Shown in pieces: positions 301 through 5,150 of a DNA stretch of 14,432 nt. This DNA comes from a virus. Taxonomy: Duplodnaviria > Heunggongvirae > Uroviricota > Caudoviricetes. The position numbers and the translations under genes are program-made. Positions within the stretch are counted from its first letter, which is position 1, and the number at the start of each line of letters is the position of its first letter. The notes under the pieces are model-generated. The model ran no database searches and was not told where the DNA came from. It saw only the letters and a list, made by a program, of their open reading frames with translations. The stretch is taken from IMG/VR virus record IMGVR_UViG_651053020_000002; one strand, given 5' to 3'.

Positions 301-1163
301 AGTATGTCTTTATTGAAAAACATCAGGCTGAGTTCAGCATCAAAGCAATGTGCCGCGTGCTCCGGGTGGCCCGCAGCGGCTGGTATACGTGGTGTCAGCG
401 GCGGACAAGGATAAGCACGCGTCAGCAGTTCCGCCAACACTGCGACAGCGTTGTCCTCGCGGCTTTTACCCGGTCAAAACAGCGTTACGGTGCCCCACGC
501 CTGACGGATGAACTGCGTGCTCAGGGTTACCCCTTTAACGTAAAAACCGTGGCGGCAAGCCTGCGCCGTCAGGGACTGAGGGCAAAGGCCTCCCGGAAGT
601 TCAGCCCGGTCAGCTACCGCGCACACGGCCTGCCTGTGTCAGAAAATCTGTTGGAGCAGGATTTTTACGCCAGTGGCCCGAACCAGAAGTGGGCAGGAGA
701 CATCACGTACTTACGTACAGATGAAGGCTGGCTGTATCTGGCAGTGGTCATTGACCTGTGGTCACGTGCCGTTATTGGCTGGTCAATGTCGCCACGCATG
801 ACGGCGCAACTGGCCTGCGATGCCCTGCAGATGGCGCTGTGGCGGCGTAAGAGGCCCCGGAACGTTATCGTTCACACGGACCGTGGAGGCCAGTACTGTT
901 CAGCAGATTATCAGGCGCAACTGAAGCGGCATAATCTGCGTGGAAGTATGAGCGCAAAAGGTTGCTGCTACGATAATGCCTGCGTGGAAAGCTTCTTTCA
1001 TTCGCTGAAAGTGGAATGTATCCATGGAGAACACTTTATCAGCCGGGAAATAATGCGGGCAACGGTGTTTAATTATATCGAATGTGATTACAATCGGTGG
1101 CGGCGGCACAGTTGGTGTGGCGGCCTCAGTCCGGAACAATTTGAAAACAAGAACCTCGCTTAG
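297..1163 (+). CDS. insF: IS3 OrfB transposase catalytic subunit (DDE/integrase core); normally expressed as an OrfAB fusion by programmed -1 frameshifting
   Basis: 288-aa ORF containing the characteristic ...[34 protein letters not shown]...[10 protein letters not shown]...[11 protein letters not shown]... motifs of IS3-family transposases. Confidence 0.93.
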
Positions 1164-2821: not shown

Positions 2822-3163
2822 ATGAACCAGTTTTATGTTCACGTTCGTCTATTTGAAGACACAGCCGAACAGACCAAAAAATTTGAAGAATTAATGCTTA
2901 ACTTTCTGTACCAGAAAACAGTTAAAGAGTCTGACGATAGCTGCTGCAGACTGATTCCAGAGGGATATATCCTCAAAAGTACAATGAACTGCCAACAAAT
3001 CCTTGATCAAACATTTTCAATTGCTAACAGTGCCGGTGTTGACGCAAATATATTTGTCTGTAAATTTGAACAAAGCGCATGCTTACTTCCGTCTGCTTCC
3101 TTAGTTGGTAACGATTTCGTTCATTACGATCTTACGCCTAAGCCCATCAAGCTCGATTCTTAA
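2822..3163 (+). CDS. ymfI: Uncharacterised prophage protein (113 aa), opposite in orientation to the flanking leftward genes
   Basis: ORF 2777..3163 with probable start at ATG 2822 (MNQFYVHVRLF...), preceded by GGAAACTT; size and position match my recollection of e14 ymfI; no recognisable domain. Confidence 0.6.
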   Translation: MNQFYVHVRLFEDTAEQTKKFEELMLNFLYQKTVKESDDSCCRLIPEGYILKSTMNCQQILDQTFSIANSAGVDANIFVCKFEQSACLLPSASLVGNDFVHYDLTPKPIKLDS

Positions 3164-3409
3164 AGCCTTAACCATTGTGTCGTGATAAACACGGCTCACC
3201 TTCTCTCCATTGCATGGCAGAGGGGTGAGTGTGTTAGCCATGAAATTCATGAACTCGGTTCGACCAGGGGCTTGCGCCCCGCAAGTCTTTAATGCCTGTT
3301 TTGCTAACAAAATGCGGGCCTCAGTGCCTGCATTTGGCTCTATCTGCTGCAAACGTTTAGCGTCTTCCAGCAACAATGCGATCACATGCTTCAAATTCTG
3401 CTCATTCAT
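3101..3409 (-). CDS. ymfJ: Uncharacterised prophage protein (102 aa)
   Basis: 102-aa minus-strand ORF MNEQNLKHVIALLLEDAKRLQQIEPNAGTEARILLAKQ...; convergent with ymfI and overlapping it by 63 nt at the 3' ends. Confidence 0.6.
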   Translation of the reverse strand: MNEQNLKHVIALLLEDAKRLQQIEPNAGTEARILLAKQALKTCGAQAPGRTEFMNFMANTLTPLPCNGEKVSRVYHDTMVKALRIELDGLRRKIVMNEIVTN

Positions 3410-3511
3410 CTATTCTCTCCACTGAAATCATCCGCTAACGAATCATCCCGGTCTTCGTACGTACCGGGCGGGCTACTTCGTGGGCGTCCTGCCTGTTTGT
3501 TGTTTCTCTTG

Positions 3512-3539
3512 GGTACATTATGTATCTCAAAGGTACATT
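3512..3539. promoter_or_regulatory. OL-like operator candidate: GTAC-cored repeat (GGTACATT at 3512-3519 and 3532-3539; TATGTATctcaaagGTACATT fits GTAY-N7-GTAC)
   Basis: Shares core and spacing with the two palindromes in the cohE-croE intergenic region; lies between the cohE terminator and the ymfJ start. Confidence 0.45.
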
Positions 3540-3546
3540 GTCAAGT

Positions 3547-3571
3547 ATAAAAAAACCTGCCGAAGCAGGTT
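3547..3571 (-). terminator. Rho-independent terminator downstream of cohE (minus strand): 7-bp stem ACCTGC(A)/GCAGGT with a UUCG tetraloop followed by a 7-T run
   Basis: Plus-strand A7 (3549-3555) then stem 3554-3560 / 3565-3571 with loop CGAA; on the minus strand this reads hairpin then TTTTTTT; starts 12 nt after the cohE stop. Confidence 0.65.
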
Positions 3572-3583
3572 CATAAACATTGA

Positions 3584-4258
3584 TTAGGCTTTGATTTTGT
3601 ATCTTCTTGGTTTTCCTGAGAAAATCACAGTACCAATTATAGAGCAATTACCGTTGATCTTAATGTAAGGCTCAGGCCAGTTTGGGTTTAACGCTTTGAG
3701 ATAACGCTGTGTCCCATCTTCTATCAACCTTTTGAAGGTGGTTTCACCTGTATCGTGCATCAATGCAATAACGTCGTCACCGTGGCAGGCAGGTACTTCA
3801 GGATCGACAAAAATCATGTCTCCCGGGCGGTACTCATCAATCATTGAATCACCTATTACCCGCAAGATATAAGTCATTTCCCCACAGGGTACAGGGCAGG
3901 GATACGTTTCTGCTGTGCTCAAATCAACCTCAGAATATCCAACTTCTTTCCATGCTCCGGCCTGTACCCATGATATGACAGGGACTAATGTGATTTGTTT
4001 ATTAGTGATTGAAACATCAGGTTTTTTTGTGATGTTCGTTGTCTGGTGTTCTTGATCGAGCCATCCTACAGGCAGGTCGAAACATTTTTCGATGTGTCGT
4101 GCCATGCTGTCACCGATATTTTTAGTAGCACCATCTCCCATAAACCTGCTGGTCTGGGTTGGCTCGCGATCAATCATAGTGGCAAAGGAAGAATTCCCGC
4201 CAACACCATCTCTCAGTTTTCTGGCGTTAGACCGCCGGATGTCATGGATTGTTTTCAT
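3584..4258 (-). CDS. cohE: Prophage CI-like repressor: N-terminal HTH DNA-binding region and C-terminal LexA/S24-type autopeptidase domain
   Basis: 224-aa ORF; C-terminal part ..ILRVIGDSMIDEYRPGDMIFVDPEVPACHGDDVIALMHDTGETTFKRL.. carries the Ser (GDSM) and Lys of S24 peptidases; divergent from a Cro-like gene. Confidence 0.88.
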   Translation of the reverse strand: MKTIHDIRRSNARKLRDGVGGNSSFATMIDREPTQTSRFMGDGATKNIGDSMARHIEKCFDLPVGWLDQEHQTTNITKKPDVSITNKQITLVPVISWVQAGAWKEVGYSEVDLSTAETYPCPVPCGEMTYILRVIGDSMIDEYRPGDMIFVDPEVPACHGDDVIALMHDTGETTFKRLIEDGTQRYLKALNPNWPEPYIKINGNCSIIGTVIFSGKPRRYKIKA

Positions 4259-4273
4259 AACGAAATTAAAACC

Positions 4274-4294
4274 CTTGTACCGTTAAGGTACAAG
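4274..4294. promoter_or_regulatory. Operator candidate O(R)-a: 21-bp palindrome CTTGTACC-GTTAA-GGTACAAG
   Basis: Arms are exact reverse complements; sits just upstream of a -35-like TTGAAG (4299-4304) in the cohE-croE divergent region. Confidence 0.6.
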
Positions 4295-4322
4295 TATCTT
4301 GAAGGTTCATTTCAATCATGTA

Positions 4323-4345
4323 ATATGTACACCGGAGGTACATAT
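4323..4345. promoter_or_regulatory. Operator candidate O(R)-b: 23-bp palindrome ATATGTAC-ACCGGAG-GTACATAT overlapping the putative croE -10 (TAATAT 4321-4326) and the croE ribosome-binding site
   Basis: Arms are exact reverse complements; GTAC cores are 11 bp apart, the same spacing as in O(R)-a. Confidence 0.6.
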
Positions 4346-4348
4346 TGT

Positions 4349-4549
4349 ATGAAAGCGTATTGGGACTCTTTAACCAAAGAACAGCAGGGCGAGTTGGCCG
4401 GAAAAGTTGGCTCAACACCTGGCTACTTACGGCTGGTTTTCAATGGCTATAAAAAAGCCAGTTTTGTGCTGGCTAAAAAACTTGAGCAATACACATCAGG
4501 TGCAATTACGAAATCTGACTTAAGACCGGATATCTATCCGAAAGATTAG
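4349..4549 (+). CDS. croE: Cro-like small HTH regulator (66 aa)
   Basis: ATG at 4349 preceded by GGAGG (4334-4338); MKAYWDSLTKEQQGELAGKVGSTPGYLRLVFNGYKKASFVLAKKLEQYTSGAITKSDLRPDIYPKD has a Cro/YdaS-like HTH; the upstream part of ORF 4046..4549 overlaps cohE on the opposite strand and is not expected to be coding. Confidence 0.8.
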   Translation: MKAYWDSLTKEQQGELAGKVGSTPGYLRLVFNGYKKASFVLAKKLEQYTSGAITKSDLRPDIYPKD

Positions 4550-4580: not shown

Positions 4581-5150
4581 ATGAGGCTAATCGTGGGTAA
4601 GCATCACTGGAAAATAGAAAAACAGCCTGAGTGGTACGTGAAAGCTGTCAGAAAAACTATCGCGGCGTTGCCGAGTGGTTACGCTGAAGCGGCTGACTGG
4701 CTCGATGTAACAGAAAACGCTTTATTCAACCGCCTTCGTGCAGATGGCGATCAGATTTTCCCGCTGGGATGGGCAATGGTTTTACAGCGTGCTGGTGGCA
4801 CTCACTTCATTGCTGATGCTGTGGCGCAGTCTGCAAATGGCGTCTTTGTGTCTCTTCCTGACGTCGAGGATGTGGACAACGCCGATATTAACCAGCGTCT
4901 GCTGGAAGTCATTGAACAGATCGGCAGTTATTCAAAACAGATTCGTTCAGCAATCGAAGACGGTGTAGTGGAACCGCATGAGAAGACAGCAATTAACGAC
5001 GAGCTGTATCTCTCAATTTCGAAGCTGCAGGAGCATGCAGCACTTGTCTACAAAATTTTTTGCATTTCAGAAAGTAATGACGCCCGCGAGTGTGCAGCTC
5101 CGGGCGTCGTGGCGTCGATTGCTTCTGGTTGTGGAGAAACTAACGCATGA
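4581..5150 (+). CDS. ymfL: Prophage CII/YdaT-like putative regulator (start uncertain: ATG 4581 or GTG 4593, which has a GAGG 6 nt upstream)
   Basis: 189-aa ORF immediately downstream of the Cro-like gene, the position a CII analogue occupies in lambdoid phages. Confidence 0.7.

Follow-up and report, generated by a model that had tools for sequence, protein, structure and literature searches.

Palindromes between cohE and croE of prophage e14 as probable operators of a lambda-type immunity region

Divergent genes cohE and croE of prophage e14 are separated by a 90-bp spacer that contains two palindromes with GTAC cores, which raises the question of whether these are the operators of a CI/Cro-type switch, as the original prediction proposed, and how many such sites the locus holds. 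The window that we analyzed, a stretch of 14,432 nucleotides of viral DNA, is the e14 prophage of Escherichia coli K-12, a cryptic lambdoid prophage, and the 1.24 kb around the palindromes is 100% identical to MG1655. The RefSeq genes under this match are ymfJ, ymfK (cohE; “LexA family protein”), ymfT (croE; “YdaS family helix-turn-helix protein”), and ymfL, and no Rfam family matches were found in the window. The e14 immunity region is 95 to 99% identical in SfV, SfIV, Ayreon, 2H10, cdtI, PhiR29/49, and a dozen Stx2c-converting phages, and has matches in 1,411 of the 5,426 complete E. coli genomes. Our comparative analysis indicates that the palindromes are very probably operators of this e14 (SfV-type) immunity region, in the form of 17-bp dyads with the consensus TGTACC-N5-GGTACA (Table 1). 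The comparative evidence in favor of the predicted CI/Cro-type switch is strong.

Table 1. Features of the e14 immunity region and matrix matches in the window
Feature	Position	Strand	Sequence or elements	Matrix score (bits)	Expected per window	Description
Matrix match	1017-1033			9.7	0.12	Within coding region
ymfJ	3101-3409	-				First gene of the leftward operon
OL2	3501-3517		TGTTTC-TCTTG-GGTACA	12.0	0.015	Half-degenerate site
PL	3517-3544	-	-35 TTGACA 3544-3539, 16 nt, -10 CATAAT 3522-3517			PL-type promoter for ymfJ and leftward operon
OL1	3521-3537		TGTATC-TCAAA-GGTACA	23.9	about 0	Region outside the training set
cohE terminator	3553-3572	-				Intrinsic terminator (terminator scan), directly upstream of PL -35
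cohE (ymfK)	3584-4258	-				224-aa CI-type repressor (RefSeq annotation, domain searches)
Matrix match	3877-3893			8.7	0.23	Within cohE
PRM (predicted)	4265-4293	-	-35 TTGTAC 4293-4288, 17 nt, -10 TTTAAT 4270-4265			PRM-type cohE promoter
OR3 (first palindrome)	4276-4292		TGTACC-GTTAA-GGTACA	20.6	about 0	Near-invariant arms
OR2 (candidate)	4293-4309		AGTATC-TTGAA-GGTTCA	9.2	0.17	Weak middle operator
PR	4299-4326	+	-35 TTGAAG 4299-4304, 16 nt, -10 TAATAT 4321-4326			croE promoter
OR1 (second palindrome)	4326-4342		TGTACA-CCGGA-GGTACA	24.8	about 0	Top score in the window
croE Shine-Dalgarno	4334-4338	+	GGAGG			Within OR1 spacer
croE (ymfT)	4349-4549	+				66-aa Cro-like helix-turn-helix protein, ATG at 4349 (RefSeq annotation)
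ymfL	4581-5150	+				RefSeq annotation

CohE has a Peptidase_S24 domain (Pfam, residues 93 to 212, E 1.5e-26), for which the PDB matches include the C-terminal domain of lambda CI, UmuD, and LexA, and it carries the motifs of an autoprotease (Ala100-Gly101, GDSM at 136 with Ser138, and KRL with Lys176). Over its first ~75 residues, CohE shows homology to the N-terminal domain of PDB 5d50 (E 6e-4, residues 1 to 73), an entry with the database title “Repressor” that we take to be Rep of Salmonella phage SPC32H, and weak homology to N-terminal domains of phage CI proteins. The Pfam HTH models stayed below threshold on this domain, the helix-turn-helix of which has the recognition helix DREPTQTSR. 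As for CroE, it gives weak Pfam matches to YdaS_toxin and HTH_3 and weak matches to solved “Cro” proteins, and the divergent gene of Pseudomonas phage BR133a encodes a homologue with 33% identity to it (E 1e-13).

Both the sequence and a repeat finder place the 8-nt arms of the first palindrome, CTTGTACC and GGTACAAG, at 4274-4281 and 4287-4294, where they are 100% complementary around the 5-nt spacer GTTAA. The second palindrome has perfect 9-nt arms, AATATGTAC (4322-4330) and GTACATATT (4338-4346), around the 7-nt spacer ACCGGAG, and these extend to 15 nt at 87% complementarity. The two had been described as perfect palindromes, which holds for the arms and their positions but not for the spacers, neither of which is symmetric. 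In each, the GTAC cores are 11 bp apart, as claimed (starts 4277/4288 and 4327/4338), and the half-sites of each dyad are one helical turn apart. A TTGAA-N7-TTCAA symmetry at 4299-4315 was considered as a third dyad and rejected, its right arm being variable among relatives.

GTAC is itself a palindromic tetramer, present in 41 copies in the window, and the two palindromes might in principle reflect chance or a clustering of GTAC through restriction-site or composition effects. However, GTAC-N7-GTAC occurs twice in the 14,432 bases against 0.12 expected, both times in the cohE-croE spacer and within 65 bp, and a count of two was reached in only one of 200 shuffles. Furthermore, of the 12 hexamers GGTACA/TGTACC that the window contains, 5 fall in the two control regions. 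A scan of Enterobacterales with one genome per species yielded 19 loci in 17 genera, with CohE 73 to 100% identical over all loci and 73 to 88% over the genera compared. These loci keep the half-sites with hardly a change, whereas the N5 spacers vary between nearly all genera (GTTAA, TTAAA, TCAAA, TTGTT, TCTTG, TTATT, TCTGT, TATAG, AAATA, and others). On the OR side, the consensus is TGTACC-N5-GGTACAAG for the first palindrome, its arms showing a single-base difference in 2 of 18 loci and its N5 spacer being free across the 17 genera, and ATGTA[CT]-N3-GGAG-GTACA for the second, the spacer of which has GGAG(G) in almost every lineage. Position 5 of the half-site tolerates C or T. This conservation of site positions over many genera, while the spacers vary, refutes an origin by chance, to which we attach a negligible probability.

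We derived a symmetric position weight matrix from the OR-side sites of loci outside E. coli (51 distinct sites) and scanned it over the window, in which OR1, OL1, and OR3 stand out (Table 1). In shuffled sequences, the best score per window had a mean of 5.9 bits, a 95th percentile of 11.2, and a maximum of 16.4. The original prediction of a shared GTAC core stands, but its two operators and short core give way to about five sites and the fuller 17-bp consensus.

The sites to the left of cohE were found by a mismatch-tolerant search, which returned TGTATCTCAAAGGTACA (OL1) and TGTTTCTCTTGGGTACA (OL2), 20 bp apart. OL1 fills the spacer between the -35 and -10 elements of PL, which at 11 of 12 sigma-70 consensus positions is the strongest promoter-like site that the promoter scan found in the region. 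PL is invariant across genera, and the Ayreon record has a “promoter” at the equivalent of window 3518-3545. It lies directly after the cohE terminator, the counterpart of which is marked as such in the records of SfV and Ayreon, is aimed at ymfJ, and corresponds in position to lambda OL/PL. Across genera, OL1 reads TGTA[CT]C-N5-GGTACATTGTCAA, with a perfect TGTACC-N5-GGTACA dyad in most other genera and a free spacer. OL2 has a nearly invariant right half, GGTACAT, and a poorly conserved left half; it spans the last base of the PL -10 and the predicted start, with the same geometry as OR1 at PR. The OL sites and the leftward ymfJ promoter had been overlooked in the original prediction.

On the right side, the two hexamers proposed for croE are found where they had been placed, 16 nt apart, and their positions are kept in relatives, with the TTG of the -35 and the A2/T6 of the -10 (TAATAT, CATAAT, TAGAAT) at the same positions across lineages. 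PR is a weak match, agreeing with the sigma-70 consensus at 8 of 12 positions, and is missing from the promoter-scan list because this falls below threshold. The predicted overlap of the second palindrome with the croE promoter and ribosome-binding site is supported: OR1 begins at the last base of the PR -10 and therefore covers both the predicted start (~4333) and the Shine-Dalgarno sequence, GGAGG. The first palindrome does end just upstream of the croE -35, as had been claimed (its arm ends at 4294 and the -35 begins at 4299). It is better read as the equivalent of lambda OR3, lying over the -35 and spacer of a PRM-type promoter that we predict for cohE.

This putative PRM has a -10, TTTAAT, without the usual A at position 2, which is followed by 6 nt and then by the cohE ATG at 4258. 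In most short-leader lineages, an nnTAAT lies 5 nt past OR3 and 6 to 7 nt ahead of the ATG, the intervening bases vary, and a Shine-Dalgarno sequence ahead of the repressor ATG is absent. The two lineages with a ~50-nt leader (L170 and L171) have a CATAAT hexamer next to OR3 and an AAGG(A)G Shine-Dalgarno sequence before the ATG. The conserved nnTAAT, so close to an ATG without a Shine-Dalgarno sequence, indicates that the cohE mRNA is leaderless and comes from the PRM-type promoter. In lambda, the cI mRNA from PRM is leaderless. Relative to the predicted PRM start, OR3 would extend from about -18 to -34. Two other hexamers, TTGAAA (4315-4310) and TACAAT (4349-4344), were rejected as parts of cohE promoters; they are not conserved and lack a usable partner hexamer.

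Between the two palindromes, the matrix scan also points to a weaker site, OR2, which adjoins the first palindrome and contains the PR -35 within its spacer. The centre of OR2 is 43 bp from the cohE ATG and at about -43 relative to the predicted PRM start, and the site is spaced 17 bp from OR3 and 33 bp from OR1. Its GGTTCA half is invariant in all 18 e14-like loci, despite an otherwise unconstrained position in a promoter spacer, and the equivalent half is a perfect GGTACA in the Pseudomonas-type and L157-164 lineages. Taken alone, OR2 is near chance window-wide, its equivalent is poor in the L165 lineage (4/10), and its offset relative to OR3, 17 bp in e14-like elements, is 16 bp in Pseudomonas-type ones. 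On balance, we favor 4293-4309 as a probable low-affinity OR2, with moderate confidence.

Invariant arms alone cannot tell a protein site from an RNA hairpin, and the palindromes could accordingly be read as acting in RNA, the first as an attenuator or terminator in the cohE sense and the second by sequestering the croE Shine-Dalgarno sequence. Indeed, a scan lists 4294-4274 on the minus strand as terminator-like, with an 8-bp stem followed by GGTTTTAATT, and the palindromes, if transcribed whole, fold at -11.4 kcal/mol (z-score -4.2) and -13.4 kcal/mol (z-score -3.0), respectively. Several observations argue against such a role. OL1 has the half-site at equal spacing inside a promoter spacer, where transcription of a hairpin is not expected. 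Compensatory changes are never seen in the arms, which are almost invariant, and the extension of the second palindrome to 15 nt is not kept in relatives. The T-run that follows the first palindrome is missing in relatives (e.g., L008 and L014) and the motif recurs in the OL promoter spacer, which led us to reject this palindrome as a terminator. Moreover, the predicted PR start lies inside OR1 and the predicted PRM start (~4258) lies downstream of OR3, so neither hairpin would be transcribed whole, and the RNA from the predicted PR start onward is unstructured (z +0.9). We therefore regard hairpins as a very unlikely explanation and retain operators as the preferred reading.

Does the motif accompany this type of repressor outside Enterobacterales? 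When viral contigs were scanned with the alignment of the CohE-type DNA-binding domain, only ~100% identical copies were returned, whereas the Pseudomonas domain retrieved a diverse set. With the domain of BR133a, we found 63 loci from several lineages, in which the domain is 56 to 100% identical to BR133a and the repressors, of 211 to 263 aa, all have an S24 C-terminal domain. Every lineage keeps the helix [DN]REPTQxSR together with a TGTACC-type half-site, and every lineage keeps the order of the sites, the cro Shine-Dalgarno sequence within OR1, and an OR3-OR1 distance of 50, 51, or 52 bp. The BR133a repressor can be aligned to CohE by BLAST over residues 1 to 71 only, where it is 59% identical, and its spacer reads, in window orientation, TGTACC-AGAAA-TGTACA / AGAACC-TTGAC-GGTACA / ... 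/ TGTACC-CAGGA-GGTACA, then the ATG of the divergent gene. Across the Pseudomonas and other phage repressors, the DNA-binding domain is 56 to 70% identical to that of CohE, and the S24 domains are far more diverged. Since the divergent gene in the Pseudomonas types is a CroE homologue, the DNA-binding domain, Cro, and the operators travel as one module. Two homologues with other recognition helices served as controls. The Comamonas homologue, with the helix KAPAQISQ, has TTAGC-N5-GCTAA twice, 48 bp apart; the CI of H-19B, with the helix SPSQLTQ and a domain 41% identical, has TTTATC-type sites, and no GTAC dyads were found in the H-19B operators.

It is most likely that the HTH dimer of CohE binds the dyads and probable that CroE does too. 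A narrower reading would keep the operators but assign them to only one of the two proteins, with another element recognized by the other protein and the motif then not being a shared CI/Cro consensus. CroE, a YdaS-like HTH protein, has no sequence relationship to the CohE DNA-binding domain, and a second specificity could be served by the invariant GGTTCAT by the PR -35 and the invariant OL flanks GGTACATTATGTA. This is countered by the co-occurrence of CI DNA-binding domain, Cro homologue, and motif across Enterobacterales and Pseudomonas phages, and by the 90-bp spacer itself, in which the repeat finder detected no second conserved dyad. It is also countered by precedent: in lambda, 434, and P22, the operators are common to CI and Cro, although the two proteins differ in fold. 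We consider use by a single protein improbable and favor operators that both proteins probably use.

Published expression data bear on how the two arms are controlled. Late after DNA damage, expression of ymfJ in the left arm and of ymfM in the right arm increases in parallel, with kinetics and a magnitude that hardly differ (log2 changes of 1.34/1.44, then 4.05/4.00, then 4.83/4.77), and the authors ascribed this late induction to a CI-like repressor rather than LexA (PMC11002266). Consistently, a “YmfT” iModulon groups intE, xisE, ymfH, and ymfJ, plus ymfT, ymfL, ymfM, and ymfN, with recN and sulA, and this e14 iModulon shows activity when fur is deleted or under oxidative stress (PMC10602906, PMC12132413). 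By these data, derepression of both early operons is linked to the SOS response, and the pattern agrees with a single repressor that acts through one motif at both promoters. We looked for LexA boxes in the window and found none near PL or PR, the sole perfect CTGT-N8-ACAG being at 2906-2921; LexA control of either promoter was rejected. The Reg-Seq preprint targeted the ymfT and ymfJ promoters and reported e14 results for the intE operon and the icdC pseudogene only. For neither CohE nor CroE did the searchable literature yield footprinting, ChIP, gel-shift, or reporter results.

The layout suggests how the switch might work. OR1 would cover the PR start region and the croE Shine-Dalgarno sequence, and the weak OR2 would cover the PR -35, ~43 bp upstream of the cohE start. 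OR3 would cover the -35 and spacer of the weak PRM-type promoter, the transcript of which is predicted to start at or beside the cohE ATG and would therefore be leaderless. OL1 and OL2 would cover the strong leftward promoter for ymfJ and, presumably, the xis/int genes beyond. In a lysogen, CohE bound to OR1/OR2 and OL1/OL2 would silence both early operons, while CohE or CroE bound to OR3 would restrict cohE transcription. Upon DNA damage, RecA-stimulated self-cleavage of CohE at Ala100-Gly101 would derepress both arms together. The sites, their conservation, and their positions relative to promoter elements come directly from sequence and comparison, as do the CohE domains and the co-induction of the two arms, and from them we infer which protein occupies which site, with what affinity, any cooperativity or activation from OR2, the start sites, and bistability.

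The palindromes were evidently noticed in 2002 in SfV, a 97%-identical phage, because its GenBank record (U82619) marks the equivalent stretch, 26377-26445, as a “putative operator region.” This maps to window 4275-4343 (offset 1937, no indels) and runs from the first palindrome to the second. No paper mapping these operators experimentally was found in the searchable literature on cohE/croE/e14, SfV, ymfK/ymfT, or ymfM. Judging prior knowledge from GenBank annotation, the features that may be new are the fuller consensus, the OL sites, the weak OR2 between the palindromes, the leaderless PRM, and the fact that the module is conserved as far as Pseudomonas phages, all of them ordinary elaborations of the lambda paradigm. 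In other words, the feature is an ordinary lambda-type operator set, already annotated as putative, and the original prediction was essentially right and incomplete. The locus is conceptually another worked example of that paradigm and not a new principle. Its practical interest is that this immunity type is common and found in SfV/SfIV serotype-converting, Stx2c-converting, and cdtI phages. An operator consensus and promoter map would help to explain why SOS induction of e14 genes, the division inhibitor ymfM among them, comes late, and would aid the prediction of superinfection-immunity groups and the design of induction reporters for toxin phages.

How closely, then, does e14 follow lambda? 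At the sequence level, e14 has several dyads of one consensus over the lytic and maintenance promoters, although OR2 is weak, and it shares with lambda the divergent repressor and cro genes, the 17-bp dyad operators with three at OR, and a second operator set at a leftward promoter directly past the terminator of the repressor gene. CohE resembles lambda CI in joining an N-terminal HTH to a C-terminal S24 autoprotease with Ala-Gly, Ser, and Lys. The repressor mRNA, predicted to be leaderless and made from a weak promoter that OR3 overlaps, is lambda-like as well, and the centre of the middle site, at about -43 from the repressor start, is close to the -42 of lambda OR2. In contrast, the half-site TGTACC is unlike that of lambda, and the spacing is uneven, with 17 bp from OR3 to OR2 and 33 bp from OR2 to OR1, versus ~23 to 24 bp in lambda. 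OR1 lies over +1 and the cro Shine-Dalgarno sequence instead of between -35 and -10, OL has two sites instead of three, and Cro is a YdaS-like HTH protein unlike lambda Cro. While CI of lambda prefers OR1 over OR2 over OR3, in e14 the outer sites are near-perfect and the middle one is weak, and the regulatory logic may therefore differ from the lambda model.

A stronger version of this idea, that the e14/SfV-type module is a variant of the lambda design with a different logic, outer-spacing geometry included, strikes us as conceivable but rather unlikely. If it were true, two strong outer sites fixed at 50 to 52 bp, with a weak middle site buried in the PR -35, an OR1 on the cro Shine-Dalgarno sequence, and a leaderless repressor mRNA would all be part of the design. 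Through the strong OR3, the repressor would then tightly repress its own synthesis and activate it little or not at all, and the constant distance between the outer sites would stem from a defined repressor oligomer or a DNA-wrapping geometry. The OR geometry is kept from Enterobacterales to Pseudomonas phages, Stx2c- and cdtI-carrying phages included.

Among other phages, SfV and SfIV have practically this DNA in their immunity region, 97 to 98% identical to e14 over cI, spacer, and cro, with an SfIV repressor 100% identical to CohE. The left half of OR1 is TGTAT in SfV, unlike in e14, which explains why GTAC-N7-GTAC is single there, and the SfV record marks one region, with individual sites, OL sites, and promoters absent from its annotation. 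According to the SfIV paper, SfV-type phages are without N, cII, and cIII homologues (PMC3851460); despite this, YmfL of e14 matches CP76, the 186-type CII family. Although the gene name hints at a link with phi80, that phage was not among the 60 records listed of the 101 that matched in the DNA-binding-domain search. H-19B CI (a Shiga-toxin phage) and PDB 5d50 have N-terminal DNA-binding domains homologous to that of CohE, but their recognition helices are unlike it (RSQNLVNR in 5d50). Finally, the CIs of Pseudomonas aeruginosa phages (vB_Pae_BR133a, LESphi3, and relatives) have a DNA-binding domain 55 to 59% identical to that of CohE and share the DREPTQxSR helix, while their C-terminal domain is too diverged from CohE for BLAST alignment and their host is different. 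These phages have in common with e14 the half-site, the three-site layout, the Shine-Dalgarno sequence within OR1, the S24 domain, and a homologous Cro. They differ in their middle site, one half of which is a perfect GGTACA and which shares one base with OR3 (a 16-bp offset), and in an OR3-OR1 distance of 51 to 52 bp.

The leader of the leftward operon, whose first gene is ymfJ, contains an element (see the table) in which ~60 nt are conserved, with the layout ACAGGCAGGACGCCCACGAAGTAGCCGCC-hairpin-ATGATTCG. The stem of the hairpin consists of 5 bp, three of which display compensatory changes across the 8 loci compared. A search of Rfam returned no family matching this element, and the corresponding DNA is also found in phages with different immunity regions (SfII, YeP1-3, AH07, phiNP, Kp4866-6, and Kati). 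For the leftward operon, the element may serve as a leader RNA, in antitermination, or as an sRNA.

Features of the e14 window other than the GTAC operators
Feature	Position	Strand	Description
Weak operator-like match	1017-1033		In coding region; 9.7 bits, 0.12 expected per window
LexA-box-like CTGTACCAGAAAACAG	2906-2921		Perfect CTGT-N8-ACAG
Conserved leader element	3434-3504	-	Between predicted PL start (~3510) and ymfJ ATG (3409)
Weak operator-like match	3877-3893		In coding region; 8.7 bits, 0.23 expected per window
ymfL	4581-5150	+	Pfam Phage_CP76 match

The same operon harbors, ~600 bp downstream of its predicted promoter PL, the only perfect CTGT-N8-ACAG in the window, which may explain the inclusion of ymfI and ymfJ among listed LexA-box genes. 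Despite this listing, the kinetics of both genes are consistent with CI-type control (PMC11002266). As for the two weak operator-like matches, they are probably due to chance.

YmfL matches Phage_CP76 (E 9e-13), the family of 186-type CII regulatory proteins, so there may be an establishment promoter, activated by CII, from which transcription would run back across croE toward cohE. SfV-type phages have been described, in the SfIV paper, as lacking CII (PMC3851460).

Different palindromes were seen at the loci of relatives. In Pseudomonas phage vB_Pae_BR133a, two copies of one such palindrome (CTGTATATACAG and CTGTATATACAA, positions 2320-2395 of that locus) lie ~55 bp apart downstream of the repressor gene, between it and a gene whose LESphi3 counterpart is annotated as a BrnT toxin; these copies bear no relation to the GTAC operators. 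In Comamonas terrae, the stretch from 26 to 74 bp ahead of the cohE homologue contains two TTAGC-N5-GCTAA dyads. The distance of 48 bp between these dyads resembles the ~50 bp by which the e14 family separates its outer OR sites, although the half-site differs.
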